From positions 28,413-92,412 of the IMG/VR virus record IMGVR_UViG_3300037088_000882: a DNA stretch of 64,000 nucleotides, one strand, 5' to 3'. A program made the position numbers and the translations under genes. Below the pieces are notes generated by a model. The model was not told the origin of the DNA, did not search any database, and was given only the letters and a program-made list of their open reading frames with translations. Below, in pieces: positions 4,784 to 61,170 of this stretch. Numbering within the stretch: position 1 is the first letter of the stretch; each line of letters starts with the position of its first letter. This DNA comes from a virus.

Positions 4784-4800
4784 TTAATCCCCTCAGTATA

Positions 4801-4847
4801 AAACAAAAAACCCTGCTTGATCTTTAGAACCAAGCAGGGTTTTGTTT
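4801..4847 (-). terminator. attenuator terminator 1
   Basis: AAACCCTGCTTG...CAAGCAGGGTTT followed by U tract. Confidence 0.9.
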
Positions 4848-4867
4848 ATTTCTTTTTTAACTTTAGA

Positions 4868-4954
4868 TCAAGACAAAATCCTACCCGGTCCCTTTAGATA
4901 GCTAAGGTAATATGATAGACACAAAGGTAAGGATTGAATAGTCTTATTGCTCAT
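4868..4954 (-). CDS. leader peptide 1 (Leu/Tyr/Cys): MSNKTIQSLPLCLSYYLSYLKGPGRILS
   Basis: 28-aa ORF between promoter and terminator; its 3' end is complementary to the terminator 5' strand. Confidence 0.85.
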   Translation of the reverse strand: MSNKTIQSLPLCLSYYLSYLKGPGRILS

Positions 4955-4962
4955 GATAACTA

Positions 4963-4991
4963 AATATAACACAGAAAAAATAAAAAGTCAA
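4963..4991 (-). promoter_or_regulatory. sigma70 promoter of tRNA array 1
   Basis: TTGACT-17 nt-TATATT with extended TG. Confidence 0.8.
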
Positions 4992-8875: not shown

Positions 8876-8948
8876 AGCCGATGAGAGGGCTCAAACCTCC
8901 AACTTGCTGATTACAAATCAGCTACTCTATCAATTGAGTTACACCGGC
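8876..8948 (-). tRNA. tRNA-Thr(TGT)
   Basis: GCTGA-TTTGTAA-TCAGC; D and T loops slightly non-canonical; no CCA. Confidence 0.85.
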
Positions 8949-10249
8949 GTATGAACATATACGTTTTTAATATACTCCAAAGCATCTTCTTGATTCAAGA
9001 TCGTCCCCTCGAGTTGTTGGTCCTCGATATCGGTTAAGATAATACCGAACTCTGGGCCTTGTTTAAAGCCCATATTAAGCAAATCCTTACCAGTCACGAT
9101 TCTTGGAGGACGAATTTCTTCTGGCTCATAAGTCTTGAGCTTTTCGATAACGAAATCATAGTTCTCAAGATTCCTATGCGATGATAAACAATCTACCCGA
9201 TGAAGAGCTAAATGATCTTCAATATTAGGTAGAGCCAGAAATCTTTTCAGTCGAGAAACTCTCATTTTCTTCACATGCATAAATTTCATGTGGTTTTCGA
9301 CTAAGTCTGAAATTCGAGTTACGAAATCATTTGAAAATTTCAACCTTTTCAAAATTCCCCAAGCAATATACTTACCCTTGATATCGTGGCCACTAAACCT
9401 TATACGGTCCTCGAAGGTTTGAGTAGGTGGCTTACCCACATCATGCAATAAGGTTGCCATTCTCACCTCAATAGAAGCCTCAGTAGGAAGATTTTCAAGA
9501 GCTTTTATCGTATGCTCGAGAACATCTCCTTCGGGGTGGTATTGAGGTGGTTGCTCACAACCCTTCATGGCCCGGACCTCGGGCAGGATATGATCGATTA
9601 ATCCAGTATCAAAAAGAAGGTTTACTGCCTTCCTGTAATTACCTGCCATAAGAATCTTAGTAAGTTCATCTGCAACTCTCTCGGCCGAGACCTGGGTTAT
9701 TTCAAAGGCATGCCTTTGAACTGCCTCTATGGTGCCTGGATCGATTTTGAAATCAAACCTGGCAGAAAAACGTACAACTCTCATCATACGTAATTTATCC
9801 TCAGCAATACGGTCATCAGGATTACCTATAAGCTTTATGATACCCTTATGAAGATCTTCAATACCTCCAACAGAATCGTAAATCTTATCTTCAATTGGGT
9901 CATAGAACATCCCATTGATGGTAAGGTCCCTACGTTGAGCATCCTCTTCCATGGTGCAAAAAGAAACGCTATCGGGCCGTCGACCATCCGAGTACACTCC
10001 ATCAGTCCTATAAGTAGCTACTTCGACTTCCTGGCCTTCATGGACGACTACAATGACTCCGAAAGCTTTGCCAACTGCAAGAGTCTTATCGAATAATTGC
10101 TCGACCATTTCGGGACGTGCGTTAGTGGCTATGTCGATATCAGTTGAAGTCCTTTGTAAGAGCATGTCTCGGACATAGCCTCCAGCAAAGAGAGCTTCAT
10201 AGCCATGGTCTCGTAATTTTTTAACTACATATAATGCTTGTTGTAACAT
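8939..10249 (-). CDS. cca: CCA-adding tRNA nucleotidyltransferase with HD domain
   Basis: GGYVRD, DIDIAT, RRDLTIN, HPEGD and LLHDVGK motifs. Confidence 0.9.
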   Translation of the reverse strand: MLQQALYVVKKLRDHGYEALFAGGYVRDMLLQRTSTDIDIATNARPEMVEQLFDKTLAVGKAFGVIVVVHEGQEVEVATYRTDGVYSDGRRPDSVSFCTMEEDAQRRDLTINGMFYDPIEDKIYDSVGGIEDLHKGIIKLIGNPDDRIAEDKLRMMRVVRFSARFDFKIDPGTIEAVQRHAFEITQVSAERVADELTKILMAGNYRKAVNLLFDTGLIDHILPEVRAMKGCEQPPQYHPEGDVLEHTIKALENLPTEASIEVRMATLLHDVGKPPTQTFEDRIRFSGHDIKGKYIAWGILKRLKFSNDFVTRISDLVENHMKFMHVKKMRVSRLKRFLALPNIEDHLALHRVDCLSSHRNLENYDFVIEKLKTYEPEEIRPPRIVTGKDLLNMGFKQGPEFGIILTDIEDQQLEGTILNQEDALEYIKNVYVHTPV

Positions 10250-10581: not shown

Positions 10582-10659
10582 TGGGGTGGAAGACGGGGCT
10601 TGAACCCGCAACCACTGGCTTCACAGGCCAGGGCTCTAGCCAATTGAGCTACCTCCACC
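10582..10659 (-). tRNA. tRNA-His(GTG) with encoded G-1
   Basis: CTGGC-CTGTGAA-GCCAG; G-1:C73; CCA. Confidence 0.95.
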
Positions 10660-10665
10660 ATAAAA

Positions 10666-11355
10666 TCAGTCTTCTCTTACTTGAACAAATTTTTCGATGT
10701 ATTCTCGATCTTTAGTGAAAATCGGAATGTTTAAATCTACATCCCCATTAACAACACAAAAACCACGTTTCCGCACAACTGGATATTTATCGAAATTTAT
10801 TCCTTTTTTCTGGAATAGTAACTCTTGTATTTCCTTACAAGAGACTTTATTTAATTCCTTGTGTGAAAAGTTTTCTCGCCCTGCCATCTGGATTGAGTTC
10901 CTGGTGGCATCCACTTGTCTCCATATGAAATAGTTTACTACCTCATCCTGAGGAATTGAAAAAACTCTACTATCAAAACAGACGTTGCTTCCATAGAGTC
11001 GAGAAAAGACTGCACTGGCCAAGGAAGCTGATATTGAAATCATTTTTCGTGCATCGTATCCGAACCAGGCATCTGTCGAGATCTTTTTATAATCTGTTAA
11101 AAGAAAGCTTATTTCGTCGGATTGGCAGTAACAAAAACCGCACCCTTGAATGTCAGCTAATACCGTATTAGCAGTTGCGATCATTTGCTCGGTAAACTCC
11201 ATGGACCATCCTTTTCCGAATCTTTTTCTGGTGATGGTGTGGAAGGCCCGGCCATCGATCCTGAGTATTACCGGAATCCGTCTTGGTAAAGTCCAAGCTG
11301 AGACTGATTCATAACGCTTCATGCGATCGCCTAGGTCTAACCTATCACTACTCAT
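10666..11355 (-). CDS. thg1: tRNA-His guanylyltransferase Thg1-like 3'-5' polymerase
   Basis: RMKRYE, RIDGRAFH, QSDEIS, FDSR and WRQVDATRNS motifs. Confidence 0.93.
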   Translation of the reverse strand: MSSDRLDLGDRMKRYESVSAWTLPRRIPVILRIDGRAFHTITRKRFGKGWSMEFTEQMIATANTVLADIQGCGFCYCQSDEISFLLTDYKKISTDAWFGYDARKMISISASLASAVFSRLYGSNVCFDSRVFSIPQDEVVNYFIWRQVDATRNSIQMAGRENFSHKELNKVSCKEIQELLFQKKGINFDKYPVVRKRGFCVVNGDVDLNIPIFTKDREYIEKFVQVRED

Positions 11356-12297: not shown

Positions 12298-12317
12298 AAG
12301 AACTCCCTTTTTAAAGA

Positions 12318-12379
12318 TGGCAGGAGTGGATCGAACCCCCATCGTCGGTTTTGGAGACCGGGTGCTTAGCGACACTCCT
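12318..12379 (-). tRNA. truncated tRNA-Trp(CCA)-like gene (62 nt)
   Basis: AGGAGTG/CACTCCT-G-CCA acceptor, CTCCAAA loop; D arm minimal, T-stem 3' strand missing. Confidence 0.6.
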
Positions 12380-12381
12380 AT

Positions 12382-12424
12382 AAAACAAAAAACCCCGCCG
12401 AATCTTTCGATCGAGCAGGGTTTG
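12382..12424 (-). terminator. attenuator terminator 2
   Basis: AAACCCTGCTCGA...TCGGCGGGGTTT followed by U tract. Confidence 0.88.
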
Positions 12425-12452
12425 ATTTGAAACACTTTATTTTTACTTAACC

Positions 12453-12551
12453 TTACTCGATCTCCAATATAGTATGCCAATGTGCCCATGATGTCGATGT
12501 GGTGGCCATTGCATTATTAGAGGATGATGTAGTAAGATTAATTGTTTTCAT
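12453..12551 (-). CDS. leader peptide 2 (Thr/Ser/Trp/His/Ala): MKTINLTTSSSNNAMATTSTSWAHWHTILEIE
   Basis: 32-aa apparently leaderless ORF; stop region pairs with the terminator 5' strand. Confidence 0.9.
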   Translation of the reverse strand: MKTINLTTSSSNNAMATTSTSWAHWHTILEIE

Positions 12552-12558
12552 GGTTATA

Positions 12559-12587
12559 ATTATACTATATATTTCGGTTCGTGTCAA
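12559..12587 (-). promoter_or_regulatory. consensus sigma70 promoter of tRNA array 2
   Basis: TTGACA-17 nt-TATAAT, 7 nt before the leader ATG. Confidence 0.9.
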
Positions 12588-12597
12588 TATTTTTAAT

Positions 12598-51059: not shown

Positions 51060-53000
51060 TTAGTCGGCATCATCGAGAAATAGACTCTTTTCAGTAATTA
51101 TGTGTTTCAATCTCTTATTGGTATAATCAACATATTTTTCTGAGATATCAAATCCTATGTAATTTCGTCCAAGTTTCTTGCACTCTTCAGCAGTTGTACC
51201 ACTTCCAATAAATGGATCGAACACTGTAGACCCTATCCAGCTAAGCATTTTAATAAGGCGCCTGGGTAATTCTGGAGGAAATGGGGCAGGATGAATTGAA
51301 TTATTTATCAATCGTGAAGATTCTTTATAAGCAGCTCGAGCAAATTCCCAGGGAGTTAAAGACCATTCTACAAACTCATCTTTAGTAAGATCGGTTTCAC
51401 CTTTGTCCTGTAGCTCGTAAGTATCCTTACAAAAAATAAGGATGTATTCCATAGCTGTTGGAAAAGAAGGATTATTTGGGCTCTTAAACGATCCCCAAGC
51501 ACAATTATGGTATAATACTTTACCTAAGTAACTATTATCTTCTTCTACTTCCATATTATAAACTTCAATATTTTCAACATTTTCAGTAATAATTTCTTTT
51601 ACCCTATAGAAAGCGTGGTAGCTCCCAATTTTAACTTTGTTGTAGAGATATTTTCTATTATCCATGTCAAAAGGAGCATCACATATATCATGTAGCTTTT
51701 TTCCGTATTTACCACAAAGTCTTATTTCATAGCATTCGTGTTTACCTTGAATGGTTCTTCCGTCTTTTAATATGCTTGAGGATAATTTTTTTCTTTTGTG
51801 TATAGATGGTGGCAATTTTAGGCGTATAAGAATATCACGTAATTGATAAACTAAATATTCAGATACTGTGACAAGAGAGCTTTGATGGGAATTAAAATGA
51901 CCGTCAGCGTGAAAAACACCTTTAATTAACTCTTTTTGAAGATCATAAGGAACTTGAAATAAAAAGGGGTGCATTTTTTTTTGATGCGCATATTCCCCAC
52001 ATAAAATTTTAAGCATCTTTGGTAGAATTTTATTTGAACTGATAATTATTCTTTTTAAATTATCTCGGTATTCTTTATGTGTTGTAAATCCTAATTTTAG
52101 GGCTATAGAAACTATATCATCAGTTAAGTAATCTTCATTTGGCCCAAAATCTAAACGAATTTCATTTTTATGTATACTACCATCTCCTAAATAATAACCT
52201 ATAAGTCTGAATAATTCTTTTGAGTTGTAATTAAAAAGAATTCCAGTTATTTTTTCTAACCTTTTATTGAAATTATTTACTCCTGCATGATGTTGCGTTG
52301 TATATCGAGGGACCATTAAGTAATACTCATAAGGCTCTAATTCTATAGGAATTTTCCACAAGGGAGTAAGCGGGACTCTTTTTCTTGGACAGCCCTTAGG
52401 GCAAAATTTACTAATCAGGCTTTTACGGTGCAATACTGGTGATACATATAAAGGATGCTCACCATAAACCGTAATCGGCTGTCCCCCTATTGTATGTATT
52501 GTATATTTATTTCCTGTAAAAACGGATTTATGTAAATCTAAAACTTTTCTAAAGCGTCGTTTATGTGTTAAAACCATATCGCCTATTTTTACATCTTTTA
52601 TATGTTTATAGCCATCTAAAGTATTGATTAATTCTTCTGGTGGTAAACATCTATTACTGGTATTGTTTTTATTCCAAGCAATTGTTGTGTATTGGAGATA
52701 GTGCAAAGAATGGGTCATGAATTGAATAATATCGGAGTGGGTAGGTATCTTTCCATTTTCTCCGTCTCCAATATTAATAACGACTCTACCTCCCTTTTTT
52801 AATTTAGGGTAGAGGGCTTTAAATATTTCTCGTAACCATTTTATATAATTTTTGTGGCCCATTTTATCGTTGAATGAATCATAACCTTCAAGACCTACAT
52901 TATATGGAGGACTTGTGATTACAAGATCGATACTTTTATCCGTGAGTTTGGGTATTAATTCTAAACAATCCCCTTGGACTATTTCATTTAAAAATTGCAT
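51060..53000 (-). CDS. beta-class N4-C/N6-A DNA methyltransferase with intein
   Basis: TSPPY, HPAPFP and DPFIGSGTT motifs. Confidence 0.9.
   Translation of the reverse strand: MQFLNEIVQGDCLELIPKLTDKSIDLVITSPPYNVGLEGYDSFNDKMGHKNYIKWLREIFKALYPKLKKGGRVVINIGDGENGKIPTHSDIIQFMTHSLHYLQYTTIAWNKNNTSNRCLPPEELINTLDGYKHIKDVKIGDMVLTHKRRFRKVLDLHKSVFTGNKYTIHTIGGQPITVYGEHPLYVSPVLHRKSLISKFCPKGCPRKRVPLTPLWKIPIELEPYEYYLMVPRYTTQHHAGVNNFNKRLEKITGILFNYNSKELFRLIGYYLGDGSIHKNEIRLDFGPNEDYLTDDIVSIALKLGFTTHKEYRDNLKRIIISSNKILPKMLKILCGEYAHQKKMHPFLFQVPYDLQKELIKGVFHADGHFNSHQSSLVTVSEYLVYQLRDILIRLKLPPSIHKRKKLSSSILKDGRTIQGKHECYEIRLCGKYGKKLHDICDAPFDMDNRKYLYNKVKIGSYHAFYRVKEIITENVENIEVYNMEVEEDNSYLGKVLYHNCAWGSFKSPNNPSFPTAMEYILIFCKDTYELQDKGETDLTKDEFVEWSLTPWEFARAAYKESSRLINNSIHPAPFPPELPRRLIKMLSWIGSTVFDPFIGSGTTAEECKKLGRNYIGFDISEKYVDYTNKRLKHIITEKSLFLDDAD
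51504..52649 (-). mobile_element. intein with LAGLIDADG homing endonuclease (382 aa)
   Basis: R|CLPP...YHN|C; LIGYYLGDG and IKGVFHADG. Confidence 0.9.
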
Positions 53001-56772: not shown

Positions 56773-57142
56773 ATTTCCAGTATTTACGAACCCTTATATG
56801 CTTACCATTAGGCATGTTATGGTAAGTCACATTGCCACTCATATCTGTTCTTTTATAAGAAGTGTTCATAAGCCATGTACGGAGCCGTATAGTATTATAC
56901 TCAGCTGTTCGTACTAGTTCTTCTGTTATGGGAACGTTTTCCTTAAATCTATGAATGCCTCCAGCACAGCCCCCATTACACCATACGTAATGTAAGGCAT
57001 CGAGTTCGAGATTCTTTTTTCTCGTCGCTTCATTGAGCATTTGAAGGGCGTGTTTTTGATGATGGATTAATTCTTCAAGTTGTTTTATATGTATAGCTTG
57101 GTTTTTTATTTTTAATTCTAGATCAGACATTATAAGCCCCAT
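56732..57142 (-). CDS. hypothetical protein
   Basis: ORF track. Confidence 0.55.
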   Translation of the reverse strand: MGLIMSDLELKIKNQAIHIKQLEELIHHQKHALQMLNEATRKKNLELDALHYVWCNGGCAGGIHRFKENVPITEELVRTAEYNTIRLRTWLMNTSYKRTDMSGNVTYHNMPNGKHIRVRKYWKFVLWLAGLSKKWM

Positions 57143-58146
57143 TTAAGAATGTATTCATTAGATAAGGCCTTGAAGCTGATTTTTTCTAAACTGTCATACA
57201 GCCTGAAAACCGTACCCTCTTGTAAAAGTTGGGGGTTTAAAGGGCTTGGAATATCGGCCATTTTTAAAAGTTCATCACAAGTATGGTTCAGAATGAAATT
57301 ATCATTGAGGATCGGAACTGTTTTTAATCCTAATCCTTTAACAAATGAAAGCATATCATCAAGCTTTAAGTACTGCTGTTTTTTAATGTCAAAAACATAA
57401 AACACATAAAGGTCAACACCTTTTAATTTGATCCGATTGCTTTGAATTCCTTCTCCTGCAGTTTCAGCCTGGATAGCATACCCATCAGGAAGTTTTTCTT
57501 TCAAATTGTATCGGTTAGCAAGTTTCCAAAATATGTTTTTATCATTCTCTATAAATTCTAAGCTATGACCACAGGCCCCGAATATTCCATCACTTTTGTA
57601 AAAGGTTGATGAAGTTCCATCTATTTTAGATGTTAAGTAAAATCTTTGCCCCTTATATTTATTAAGCAAGCTAAGACAGTTTTGAACTCTCTCTTCATCA
57701 GTTTTCGGTATTATTCCTGGTAATAACCCCTTCATTTCTCCGGCCAGGTGTACGGGAATAGGGGGTTCGTATCTATAAACCCCAATTTGCTTAGTAACTT
57801 CAGTTCCGATTTCTCGATCGGTTATTTCTGGGAATTGAAATAAAGGGAGAGCTAGACCTTGCGAGATTTGGCCTCTGAGCCTTATTGTCTTTAAGCGGAA
57901 TCCTATAACTTCTTTACCGTCCTCTATAATGGATTTTTTTAAAGTATTTCCTTTTGAAAGGAAGGAGAACTGGGGAATATTAGGTAATAATGAATCCACT
58001 TCAAAGTACAAACAGAGATCTTGAGGTTTGAAATTACCTTTTTGTGTTACACACCACCATCCTTGAATTCTTATTTTTTCAATAGCATCGGCCCCTTCAA
58101 TGGGCAAAACTTCTTCAATACGCTGTATAGAGGCGAGTTTACGCAT
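57130..58146 (-). CDS. RNA ligase (DRB0094/Rnl2-like)
   Basis: RKLASI..ADAIE N-domain, KTDEER, KIDGTS, EG.V and SFK motifs. Confidence 0.9.
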   Translation of the reverse strand: MRKLASIQRIEEVLPIEGADAIEKIRIQGWWCVTQKGNFKPQDLCLYFEVDSLLPNIPQFSFLSKGNTLKKSIIEDGKEVIGFRLKTIRLRGQISQGLALPLFQFPEITDREIGTEVTKQIGVYRYEPPIPVHLAGEMKGLLPGIIPKTDEERVQNCLSLLNKYKGQRFYLTSKIDGTSSTFYKSDGIFGACGHSLEFIENDKNIFWKLANRYNLKEKLPDGYAIQAETAGEGIQSNRIKLKGVDLYVFYVFDIKKQQYLKLDDMLSFVKGLGLKTVPILNDNFILNHTCDELLKMADIPSPLNPQLLQEGTVFRLYDSLEKISFKALSNEYILKWGL

Positions 58147-58203: not shown

Positions 58204-58884
58204 TCAAATTTTATTGTGGGCAAAAATGTAATTACCGCCCGTATTCTTCATCAGTTTATAATTGGGGCCAATAATATTTTCGAACTCTTTTTGGGTTGTG
58301 GGGAATTTCTTTAGAGGGGCATATTCTACAATAATTATTTTTGGGTCGTATTCTTCAAAATTTAATCCTCGCAAGACCGCCAGGTCGTTTCCTTCTGTAT
58401 CAATACACAGGGCATCAATATCTTTAATGTTGTGTTTCTTAAAAAGATCGTTTAGCGTTAAAACTGATACTTCTTCCTGTCCTATATCTGGACCAAGTCT
58501 ACGGTCATTAGGGTCTTCTGGTTTTGTTTCTTGCTCTCTTAATGAATGGCATCCTTGCTCTCTTTTTATGAATAAAGTAGCTTTTTTTGATACACTTGAT
58601 ACTGCTATATTTTCCAAAATCACTTTATTATTGTTATCGTAAAGATATTTTAATTGTTTAAAATAAATAGAATAAGGCTCCACTAAAAGAGCACTCCAAT
58701 CATATTCATTGATCAATTTAAATGAGTTAGATACACTAACTCCATCAGCAGCTCCTACATCAACAATAAGGCCATTTTTCTTACTGTTAAAGTAATTAAT
58801 AATAAAGTCGTCTTCATTGTTTGATGCAGTAAATGTACGGCTGGCACGAAAAGCACTTATTTTGGGATCTTTTAGGTTGATCAT
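58204..58884 (-). CDS. FkbM-family methyltransferase
   Basis: VDVGAADG.SNS, VEP and IDTEG motifs. Confidence 0.85.
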   Translation of the reverse strand: MINLKDPKISAFRASRTFTASNNEDDFIINYFNSKKNGLIVDVGAADGVSVSNSFKLINEYDWSALLVEPYSIYFKQLKYLYDNNNKVILENIAVSSVSKKATLFIKREQGCHSLREQETKPEDPNDRRLGPDIGQEEVSVLTLNDLFKKHNIKDIDALCIDTEGNDLAVLRGLNFEEYDPKIIIVEYAPLKKFPTTQKEFENIIGPNYKLMKNTGGNYIFAHNKI

Positions 58885-58976: not shown

Positions 58977-59062
58977 TGGCGGAGAGCCGGCGATTTGAAC
59001 GCCGAAGCCCTTTCGGGCGCTGGTTTAGCAAACCAGGGTCATACCATTAGACATAGCTCTCC
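58977..59062 (-). tRNA. tRNA-Ser(GCT)
   Basis: CTGGT-TTGCTAA-ACCAG, long variable arm, CCA. Confidence 0.95.
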
Positions 59063-59310
59063 ATAATTTGTTTGATAAGGTTTTGTTCTATAAATCTTTT
59101 TACATCAGCAGGATAGATAGTGTAAGCAATATTATCAATCTCATAATCTGGGTCGTCGCCTAAAAATTCAATAAATCTTTCTAAAGGTATTTCTTCTCGT
59201 TTTCTGTTTGGGGTAAATATTATAAGGTTCCCTCGTTGTCCTCGGAGATACCATTTCCATGTATCAGCCCCGATGTGAATTTTTCTTAGAGCTTTCATTT
59301 TACGAGACAT
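59047..59310 (-). CDS. hypothetical protein; stop codon inside tRNA-Ser
   Basis: SD AAGGA. Confidence 0.6.
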   Translation of the reverse strand: MSRKMKALRKIHIGADTWKWYLRGQRGNLIIFTPNRKREEIPLERFIEFLGDDPDYEIDNIAYTIYPADVKRFIEQNLIKQIMESYV

Positions 59311-59328
59311 GCGTTTTCCTTAAAATAG

Positions 59329-59404
59329 TGGTGGGTGTTTCCAGACTCGAACTGGAATAACAGGATTTTCAGTCCCGCACCTTGACCCCGTTGGTAAAAC
59401 ACCC
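59329..59404 (-). tRNA. tRNA-Phe(GAA)
   Basis: CGGGA-CTGAAAA-TCCTG, CCA. Confidence 0.9.
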
Positions 59405-59458
59405 ATTATAAAGACACTAAAGCCATCGTTGTCCATTGGGTGTTTCCTTTCTTGTTAA

Positions 59459-59535
59459 TGGTAGGCCCGGACCGAGTTGAACGGTCGACCCCTACCTTAT
59501 CAGGGTAATGCTCTAACCATCTGAGCTACGGGCCT
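59459..59535 (-). tRNA. tRNA-Ile(GAT)
   Basis: TTACC-CTGATAA-GGTAG, CCA. Confidence 0.95.
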
Positions 59536-59542
59536 GTAAATC

Positions 59543-59629
59543 TAGCGGGAGCAGGATTCGAACCTGCGTCCTCTGTTAAGAGGTGAGGCTTATGAGACCC
59601 CCGAGTTAGACCAACTACTCTATCCCGCG
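59543..59629 (-). tRNA. initiator-type tRNA-Met(CAT) with long variable arm
   Basis: C1:U72 mismatch, CTCATAA loop, variable stem CCTCT-TAAC-AGAGG. Confidence 0.8.
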
Positions 59630-59637
59630 ATAATTTA

Positions 59638-59715
59638 TGGTGGTGGTAGCTGGATTTAAACCAGCGAATCTCTGGATTATGATTCCAGGGCATTAATCAG
59701 CTATGCTATACCACC
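59638..59715 (-). tRNA. tRNA-Met(CAT), elongator (or Ile2)
   Basis: CTGGA-ATCATAA-TCCAG; atypical D and T loops; CCA. Confidence 0.75.
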
Positions 59716-59769
59716 ATATTAGCTCCTCCAATTTTTTGTGCTTTTAGTGTGTACATCTAAACTCCATAA

Positions 59770-59846
59770 TGGCGGGCCCGACGTGGATCGAACACGCGAC
59801 CTCCGCAGTGACAGTGCGGCGTTCTAGCCAATTGAACTACGAGCCC
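59770..59846 (-). tRNA. tRNA-Asp(GTC)
   Basis: CCGCA-CTGTCAC-TGCGG, G73, CCA. Confidence 0.95.
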
Positions 59847-59890
59847 AAAAAACAAAAAACCTCGTTGGTTTCCCAGCGAGGTTTTGATTT
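59847..59890 (-). terminator. attenuator terminator 3
   Basis: AAAACCTCGCTGG-GAAA-CCAACGAGGTTTT followed by U tract, directly before tRNA-Asp. Confidence 0.9.
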
Positions 59891-59913
59891 AATCTATTTT
59901 GTTACTTGTTAAA

Positions 59914-60003
59914 TCAAGACCCCGCCTTAGGCATAGTATCAAACATGCTATCACTAATGATAAACATAAAGCTGATACTGACGGTCTTGGTTGAAAGTAA
60001 CAT
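59914..60003 (-). CDS. leader peptide 3 (Ser-AGY/Ile/Phe/Met/Asp): MLLSTKTVSISFMFIISDSMFDTMPKAGS
   Basis: 29-aa ORF with SD AAGGA; stop region pairs with the terminator 5' strand. Confidence 0.9.
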   Translation of the reverse strand: MLLSTKTVSISFMFIISDSMFDTMPKAGS

Positions 60004-60046
60004 TGAAAGTAATTTCCTTAGTAAAGTAAACTGCGAATCTTAATTA

Positions 60047-60075
60047 AAGATAACACATAAAAAAGTTTTTGTCAA
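60047..60075 (-). promoter_or_regulatory. sigma70 promoter of tRNA array 3
   Basis: TTGACA-17 nt-TATCTT with extended TG. Confidence 0.8.
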
Positions 60076-60379
60076 TATATTTTTTTAAAAAAATAATTTA
60101 TACTCGATTTCATGTATAAGAGTGTATAATTTGTTATAAATAATTTTAAAGATAAATTTGCACTTAAGTTATTTTTATGCTATATTAAGGTCTAATAGTT
60201 TATCTCTATAGGTTTTTTACTTATTTGTTTTTCAAAGGAGTTTTATATGTAATCGCAAAATGTTTACTCGCTTCATTTGTGTAATAGCCAGTTGGGTCGG
60301 GCCATTAAGTGTCCCATTAATACTGACAGGCTAACGTTTTAAGATCACTAAACGCAAAACAACTAACAAGGAGTCTATC

Positions 60380-60991: not shown

Positions 60992-61020
60992 TTGACTTTA
61001 CTTTTTAAAACAGTTATAAT
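60992..61020 (+). promoter_or_regulatory. sigma70 promoter of tRNA array 4
   Basis: TTGACT-17 nt-TATAAT, 6 nt before the leader ATG. Confidence 0.88.
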
Positions 61021-61026
61021 TATACC

Positions 61027-61104
61027 ATGTTAAAAAATACGTTAAACACAATTATAGGTACGGTCGGGATAAGTGAACGTAAGGTAGGAGGATTTCTAAC
61101 CTGA
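61027..61104 (+). CDS. leader peptide 4: MLKNTLNTIIGTVGISERKVGGFLT
   Basis: 25-aa apparently leaderless ORF; CCTGACAGGGCCT pairs with the terminator 5' strand AGGCCCCGTCAGG. Confidence 0.8.
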   Translation: MLKNTLNTIIGTVGISERKVGGFLT

Positions 61105-61134
61105 CAGGGCCTGTATTGTATAAAAAGTAAGTTC

Positions 61135-61170
61135 AAGGCCCCGTCAGGAAACCGACGGGGCCTTTTTTAT
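61135..61170 (+). terminator. attenuator terminator 4
   Basis: AAGGCCCCGTC-AGGAAACC-GACGGGGCCTT followed by U tract. Confidence 0.92.

Follow-up and report, generated by a model that had tools for sequence, protein, structure and literature searches.

Why should a phage place an intrinsic transcription terminator immediately in front of its own tRNA genes? The question is raised by a locus on the minus strand of an uncultured-phage sequence, here called unit C, in which a promoter, a short open reading frame (ORF), and a set of alternative RNA hairpins precede six tRNA genes. The earlier note had read the locus as an attenuator, and the sequence supports that reading: a promoter, a Shine-Dalgarno (SD)-like motif with an ATG, a run of regulatory codons, 1:2, 2:3, and 3:4 hairpins, and a stop codon inside segment 2 are all present and in register. 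We consider it probable that unit C is a ribosome-mediated transcription attenuator of the trp/his type that gates the phage tRNA operon and senses the operon's own tRNAs. Its parts, their register, the folding energies, and the codon statistics are direct observations on the DNA.

The window (i.e., the whole stretch of DNA analyzed, 64 kb) is the last 64 kb of a record of 92,412 bp with a CheckV completeness of ~20%. A protein identical to the product of the window's 201-aa neighbor gene is carried by a 474-kb contig, and the window is therefore a fragment of a huge uncultured phage. Neighbors with 55 to 58% identity are encoded on further contigs. The fragment has a GC content of ~36% and encodes a DNA polymerase, a DnaB-like helicase, and a SNF2 helicase, together with at least 21 tRNA genes in four arrays and three tRNA-handling enzymes (Thg1, a CCA-adding enzyme, and an RNA ligase). 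No close relative was found among GenBank phages, to any of which the DNA polymerase of the window was at most 32% identical.

Unit C begins with a sigma-70-type promoter (60047..60075, minus strand) consisting of TTGACA, a 17-nt spacer, and TATCTT, with 10 of 12 consensus matches and a TG before the -10 hexamer. Only 20 sites matching at 10 or more of 12 positions, this one included, were present on both strands of the 92-kb record. An SD-like AAGGA (60015..60019, minus strand) lies 11 nt before the ATG at 60003, a spacing that is long and suboptimal yet within the usable range. The predicted leader ORF (59914..60003, minus strand), which on re-reading matched the one given in the earlier note exactly, comprises 29 codons and a TGA at 59916 to 59914. 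It is followed by an intrinsic terminator (59847..59885, minus strand), composed of a hairpin from 59885 to 59856 and a T6-G-T6 tract that extends to 59847. This U-tract abuts tRNA-Asp, which starts at 59846 and opens the array (58977..59846, minus strand). ARAGORN and Rfam identified in it tRNA-Asp(GTC), tRNA(CAT), an initiator-like tRNA(CAT), tRNA-Ile(GAT), tRNA-Phe(GAA), an 87-aa ORF, and tRNA-Ser(GCT).

The initiator-like tRNA(CAT), at window positions 59542 to 59630 (minus strand), has a C1:U72 mismatch and, at ~14 nt, a long, class-II-like variable arm. Its score with the Rfam tRNA model is 50 bits, and the variable arm is unusual for a tRNA-fMet.

We compared the codons of the leader with those that the downstream tRNAs would read. 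Under standard wobble, the Asp(GTC), two CAT, Ile(GAT), Phe(GAA), and Ser(GCT) tRNAs read a set of nine codons, and the 14 codons listed in the earlier note for positions 9 to 22 (59938..59979, minus strand) all belong to it (14/14). Within this run, all Ser codons are AGY (4/4) and all Ile codons are ATY (3/3), as had been claimed; the two Ser codons of the leader that lie outside the run are both TCN. For the tRNA(CAT) at 59638, suggested earlier to be an elongator tRNA-Met and not an Ile2 tRNA, the presence of three ATY codons and no ATA among the Ile codons has a chance probability of ~0.25, and blastn against phage and Escherichia coli genomes favored neither identity.

The note had proposed that the probability of such a run be computed under the codon usage of the phage. 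In 76 long ORFs, which cover 89% of the 92-kb record, the frequency of the nine-codon set was 0.200; a run of 14 thus has a probability of 0.2^14 = 1.6e-10 per start, or ~2e-9 for the leader ORF. Across all six frames of the record, we found eight runs of 6 set codons, one of 7, one of 8, and one of 14, the last being the unit C run, with the run of 8 as its runner-up. Among the 1,334 ORFs of 15 to 60 codons, the unit C leader was the sole outlier in the length of its set-codon run. Set codons account for 15 of 28 codons in the leader as a whole (binomial p = 8e-5).

The leader RNA can form three structures. Segment 1 (59983..59989, minus strand) pairs with positions 59915 to 59921 of segment 2; segment 2 (59909..59926, minus strand) forms the 5' arm of the antiterminator and holds the stop codon; segment 3 (59875..59892, minus strand) serves twice, as the 3' arm in the antiterminator and as the 5' arm in the terminator. 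The antiterminator pairing quoted in the earlier note proved to be real and longer than quoted, joining 59926 to 59909 with 59892 to 59875 over 17 bp. Folded alone, the antiterminator (2:3) had an energy of -18.7 kcal/mol (z = -5.8 against shuffled sequences), the terminator (3:4) one of -16.3 kcal/mol, and the 1:2 domain, which spans the leader-coding region, one of -25.6 kcal/mol (z = -3.2). The minimum free energy fold of the leader transcript (z = -3.6 against shuffled sequences) contained 1:2 (59989 to 59983 with 59921 to 59915) and 3:4. Terminator and antiterminator share positions 59875 to 59885 of segment 3, and 1:2 and 2:3 share segment 2; the three structures are mutually exclusive alternatives.

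When the full-length RNA was folded at equilibrium with a masked ribosome, the terminator was favored at every ribosome position, which means that any switch must be kinetic, as it is in classical attenuators. Equilibrium folding of the complete leader, which yielded no switch, was set aside as the wrong model, attenuation being a kinetic process. We therefore evaluated a masking scan in which a ribosome footprint of 28 nt was placed at each A-site codon and only the RNA present before emergence of the terminator 3' arm was allowed to fold. With A-site codons 2 to 23, the 5' arm of the terminator was sequestered with a probability of 0.52 to 0.87; from codon 24 to the stop, the probability was ~0.27. 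It was 0.52 with no ribosome, because 1:2 competes. The profile of unit C is less clean than those of the three other units of the window (A, B, and D; see below), dipping at codons 16 and 17 to 0.52, the value obtained with no ribosome. Codon 22, the end of the run, is also the last stall position that leaves segment 2 entirely free, with 15 nt separating its first base from that segment. According to this profile, the run ends where stalling ceases to be productive. A cross-unit duplex matrix, considered as additional support, was rejected for unit C: the diagonal was strongest for most units, C being an exception owing to a G-rich tail that can pair with every C-rich arm.

We infer translation of the leader and, through it, control of termination, in the following manner. 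RNA polymerase, presumably that of the host in view of the strong sigma-70-type promoters and intrinsic terminators, would start at the promoter at 60075, and a ribosome would translate the 29-codon leader. If aminoacyl-tRNA were scarce for the Asp, Met, Ile (AUY), Phe, or Ser (AGY) codons, the ribosome would stall within codons 9 to 22, melting 1:2 while staying at least 15 nt upstream of segment 2. The emerging segment 3 would then pair with segment 2, no terminator would form, and transcription would read through into the six tRNA genes. If the tRNAs were plentiful, the ribosome would reach the TGA and cover segment 2, 3:4 would form, and transcription would stop a few bases before tRNA-Asp. 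Unit C RNA that was not translated would form 1:2 together with 3:4, and transcription would terminate as well. Because the sensed molecule is also the product, the circuit would be a closed negative-feedback loop acting on single isoacceptors: leader translation would become faster as the tRNAs are made, placing each tRNA set under negative-feedback regulation. The factor that limits decoding in the host could be a mismatch in codon usage, a high demand late in infection, or cleavage of host tRNAs.

The same layout precedes all four tRNA arrays of the window. Unit A (4798..4991, minus strand) has a 28-codon ORF (4954 to 4868) rich in Leu, Tyr, and Cys and a terminator at 4842 to 4808, and it precedes an array of Cys, five Leu, and Tyr tRNAs. 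Unit B (12382..12587, minus strand) has a 32-codon ORF (12551 to 12453) rich in Thr, Ser(TCN), Ala, Trp, and His and a terminator at 12423 to 12390; the operon behind it contains Thr, Ser(TGA), His, Thr, and Ala tRNAs together with the genes for Thg1 and the CCA-adding enzyme. Unit D (60992..61170, plus strand) has an ORF at 61027 to 61104 and a terminator at 61135 to 61165, followed by genes for two Glu tRNAs and a tRNA(TAT). The four units hold 4 of the 20 promoter sites with 10 or more of 12 matches, and that of unit B is the only 12/12 site of the record. About seven strong terminator-like hairpins occur in the 92 kb, and the four that are GC rich and T6 tailed are exactly those located between a strong promoter with a short ORF and a tRNA array. 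Only 7 to 8 nt separate the -10 hexamer from the ATG in units A, B, and D, so their mRNAs would be leaderless; the 1:2 segment is absent from these three units and present in C.

Each leader was scored for the codons of each of the four arrays. In this 4-by-4 matrix, leaders A (10/27, p = 2e-3) and B (16/31, p = 5e-7), as well as C at the value given above, were enriched for the codons of their own arrays, and every off-diagonal cell had a p value of >0.3. The codon match that the earlier note pointed out is thus specific to unit C's own array, and leaders A and B follow the same principle, as do units in two other phages. With its own codon set, leader B contains a run of 12, the next longest in the record being 8; for units B and C, the array that defines each codon set is preceded, at a distance of no more than 200 nt, by the longest run of that set in the whole record. 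Leader D showed no enrichment for the codons of the visible Glu, Glu, and tRNA(TAT) genes, and the contig ends 2.5 kb further on. Ser codons are divided by family between two leaders, with AGY in four of four cases in the run of C, whose array has tRNA-Ser(GCT), and TCN in five of five cases in leader B, whose array has tRNA-Ser(TGA) (joint P of ~0.0016 given the usage of Ser codons). The match between leader and array is at the codon level, not the amino-acid level.

The operons behind units B and C are accompanied by genes for tRNA maturation and repair. A Thg1-family tRNA-His guanylyltransferase (10666 to 11355, minus strand; Pfam Thg1, E = 2e-22; Thg1C, E = 1.5e-5) is encoded inside operon B, directly upstream of tRNA-His(GTG) (10582 to 10658, minus strand), and the phage seems to bring the G-1-adding enzyme together with its own tRNA-His. 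The CCA-adding enzyme (8939 to 10249, minus strand), with PolyA_pol head, RNA-binding, tRNA_NucTran2_2, and HD domains, is also encoded inside operon B, immediately before tRNA-Thr(TGT). On the 3' side of operon C, genes for an FkbM-like methyltransferase (58204 to 58884, minus strand) and an RNA ligase (57130 to 58146, minus strand; Pfam PHA02142 OB-fold and RNA_ligase) follow on the same strand. The scan for strong terminators gave none between operon C and these two genes, so the operon C tRNAs may be cotranscribed with the methyltransferase and RNA ligase as repair genes. It is possible that repair and maturation enzymes are coinduced with the tRNAs of operons B and C.

This gene content bears on what the attenuators might be for. 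We regard it as conceivable, though doubtful, that they serve an inducible phage tRNA rescue island as its sensors, providing an on-demand counterdefense resolved to the isoacceptor. Host defenses, through anticodon nucleases or tRNA depletion, or a codon-usage mismatch would starve ribosomes of particular isoacceptors, and the matching operon would be de-attenuated. The replacement tRNAs would then be delivered with Thg1 and the CCA-adding enzyme from operon B and with the methyltransferase and RNA ligase from behind operon C.

We searched for the attenuator design in other genomes. No close homolog of the unit C leader was found by blastn, through neighbor proteins, through the RNA ligase, or with a tRNA-Asp pattern. 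At the unit C locus, blastn against GenBank phages matched tRNAs only, the neighbor proteins had no matches in IMG/VR, and the exact tRNA-Asp pattern search gave no matches. Relatives of the RNA ligase and the CCA-adding enzyme were found only at 32 to 50% identity, on contigs without comparable tRNA arrays, and synteny was not kept around the relatives of the 201-aa neighbor protein in L007 and L012.

The layout itself was found elsewhere. Two ENA metagenome contigs, L009 and L008, were reached through a neighbor protein with 42% identity. In their three units, a Cys leader (2 of 20 codons, p of ~0.02 to 0.06) is followed by a lone tRNA-Cys; an Arg leader (four CGN codons in 16, p of ~1e-3 to 2e-4) is followed by tRNA-Arg(ACG), with tRNA-Arg(TCG) further downstream; and a mixed leader of 48 codons (34/47, p of ~0.005 to 0.009, with a run of 16) precedes an operon of 25 tRNAs. 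Here, too, synonymous codons are divided, with AGR in the mixed leader, whose operon has Arg(CCT) and Arg(TCT), and CGN in the Arg leader (P of ~0.016). The L013 unit has the layout with a leader that is not enriched for the codons of the tRNAs visible downstream.

A third phage, represented by a 330-kb IMG/VR record (G005), was reached through a tRNA-Cys acceptor-stem pattern and carries 58 tRNAs in a 30-kb island. The DNA polymerase of the window has no detectable homolog in G005, which is therefore at most a distant relative of the window's phage. An unbiased scan for strong terminators on the coding strand of the island detected eight. Four of these have the end of a short ORF 27 to 31 nt upstream and a tRNA within 26 to 40 nt downstream; two of the others close an operon, and two have no candidate leader ORF. 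The four leaders match the codons of the arrays that they precede, namely a Phe/Asn/Ser(AGY)/Cys array (10/26, p = 2.5e-3), a mixed set of 23 tRNAs (26/41, p = 0.1), a Met/Thr/Ile/Ala/Asp/Arg/Val array (20/37, p = 3e-3), and a Pro/Gln/Arg array (9/19, with a run of 9, p = 2.8e-5). No off-diagonal cell of the G005 leader-by-array matrix fell below 0.1, and a ribosome-dependent switch at the end of the ORF was computed in all four units. The G005 ORFs were delimited with the standard code, yet TAG closes three of the leaders, and the phage encodes tRNAs with the anticodons CTA and TTA. Altogether, the layout is shared by 12 units of three phages, and the gap between the stop codon and the 5' arm of the terminator is 22 to 31 nt in all 12.

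Those two G005 tRNAs, of the amber and ochre suppressor types (G005:C1:151440-151511 and 158885-158959), lie inside attenuator-gated operons. Together with the TAG ends of three of the four leaders, they raise the possibility that stop-codon recoding interacts with attenuation. The mixed leaders of L009 (6260 to 6115, minus strand) and of the G005 island (12461 to 12589; L022) are alike at the peptide level, with a common segment of His, Ala, Val, Leu, Ser-Ser, Trp, Leu, Glu-Gly, Tyr, and Lys, and both precede large operons for His, Leu, Trp, and other tRNAs. The resemblance suggests a homologous, conserved leader and not convergence.

The synonymous splits in the window and on L009 bear directly on what the leaders sense. 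The attenuator might be real and report general translation capacity or amino-acid starvation instead of the abundance of the phage isoacceptors, any slowing of translation being sufficient for induction. Such a device would have the same structure, which cannot tell tRNA shortage from insufficient charging, and leaders D and L013 are not codon matched; the nearest published case, the trn array of Anabaena, is induced by general translational stress (PMC8421152). Against this, the synonymous codons follow the leaders' own arrays (Ser AGY or TCN in the window and Arg CGN or AGR in L009), a division that amino-acid sensing does not predict, and the two cross-matrices contain no off-diagonal enrichment. 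We consider this alternative unlikely.

The codon statistics and the repeated layout also weigh on whether there is an attenuator at all. The ORF might be a chance frame, and the hairpin with its U-tract an ordinary terminator or a structure for 5' processing or stabilization of the tRNA precursor, with no conditional read-through. Short ORFs are abundant in the record, as the 1,334 counted above attest, the translation of the leader is a prediction, and the full-length RNA favors the terminator at equilibrium. This account is nevertheless very unlikely, since it would leave the longest run of set codons in the record directly upstream of its own array to coincidence, along with an antiterminator as stable as the terminator and a layout repeated in 12 units. 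Moreover, a constitutive terminator ~190 nt past a strong promoter and abutting the first tRNA would silence the operon, and no minus-strand gene ends upstream that would need one.

Adjacency to the tRNA genes would be incidental if unit C were an independent small gene, specifying either a 29-aa hydrophobic peptide or an sRNA of ~190 nt with its own terminator. Terminated attenuator RNAs and leader peptides can act in trans in other systems (PMC6614838, PMC7968998). The peptides of the 12 units are, however, unrelated, except for those of the two mixed leaders, and what the units have in common is the layout and the codon match; an independent gene is thus highly improbable. Direct tRNA sensing by an untranslated leader RNA through codon-anticodon pairing, in the manner of a T-box, is barely credible. 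The codon-level match of leader and array would suit it, yet the 14 different specifier codons share one frame that has a start, a stop, and an SD, as fits a ribosome and not a T-box, and the locus has neither a conserved NCCA-binding bulge nor even a weak score for a T-box or any other riboswitch family.

A ribosome-mediated attenuator in front of tRNA genes would put a familiar device to a new use. To our knowledge, leader-peptide attenuation, in the textbooks for nearly fifty years, is known only for amino-acid and synthetase genes. Unit C has the same promoter and short ORF with clustered regulatory codons as the enterobacterial leaders, both multivalent (thrL, Thr/Ile; ilvL of ilvGMEDA, Ile/Val/Leu) and others (trpL, hisL, pheL, and leuL). 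It also shares with them the 1:2, 2:3, and 3:4 hairpins, the terminator, and a stop codon placed so that a ribosome finishing the leader blocks the antiterminator. The thr and ilv multivalent leaders are the closest in logic. Unlike in these systems, the regulated genes here are those for tRNAs and not for biosynthetic enzymes, the sensed molecule would be the product, the choice of codons tracks isoacceptors (Ser AGY versus TCN), and three of the window's four units lack a 1:2 segment and would give leaderless mRNAs. Searches with Rfam leader families gave scores at unit C below the gathering thresholds (His_leader, RF00514, 23.5 bits against 49; Phe_leader, RF01859, 19.7 against 55); from its layout, unit C appears to work like these families, of which it is not a member by sequence.

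Two further systems invite comparison. The pheM leader attenuator of Escherichia coli pheST controls phenylalanyl-tRNA synthetase and senses one amino acid; as proposed for unit C, leader-peptide attenuation is applied here to a translation-apparatus gene, which makes pheM-pheST the closest system in this respect, but it controls no tRNA genes. T-box riboswitches carry a single specifier codon and the conserved T-box motif, make direct contact with uncharged tRNA, and regulate synthetase or amino-acid genes. Like unit C as proposed here, they are transcription antitermination devices in which codon-anticodon recognition reports the state of one particular tRNA; a covariance search of positions 59500 to 60120 yielded no T-box match even at E values of up to 10.

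The Anabaena sp. PCC 7120 trn L-array consists of 26 tRNA genes that are silent and become induced under translational stress (PMC8421152), repression being exerted by the RHH protein TrcR (PMC10272220). As proposed here, an accessory tRNA array is switched on when translation is impaired. In Anabaena, however, the element is cellular and not of phage origin, and control is by a protein repressor at the promoter, without a codon-matched leader; the 2021 paper (PMC8421152) mentions neither attenuation nor a leader or terminator. A full-text literature search, which was not exhaustive, found no description of leader-peptide control of tRNA genes.

A known device thus appears to be wired to tRNA genes, with tRNA as both the signal and the product. 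Attenuators of this kind would explain how giant phages rich in tRNAs dose them, and they bear on why phages carry tRNAs, whether for codon compensation or for counterdefense. They offer a way to read from sequence only which tRNA genes belong to which operon, and the leaders could help in predicting noncanonical tRNA genes and genes that an assembly lacks. They may also offer compact, programmable sensors for single isoacceptors.

Several observations concern the other arrays and genes of the window. Directly after the terminator of unit B, a tRNA-like sequence (12315 to 12380, minus strand) has an anticodon loop with CCA (Trp) and an encoded 3' CCA. It was missed by ARAGORN and the Rfam tRNA model, its sole match being to tRNA-Sec at 17.7 bits; the two TGG codons in leader B would fit a noncanonical tRNA-Trp at this position. 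Inside array A, a sigma-70-type promoter with 10 of 12 matches (3851 to 3823, minus strand) is located just before tRNA-Leu(TAA), so part of that array may escape attenuator A. Finally, a 646-aa ORF for an N6/N4 DNA methylase (51060 to 53000, minus strand) has a LAGLIDADG domain inserted at residues 355 to 406, which is probably an intein or an inserted homing endonuclease.
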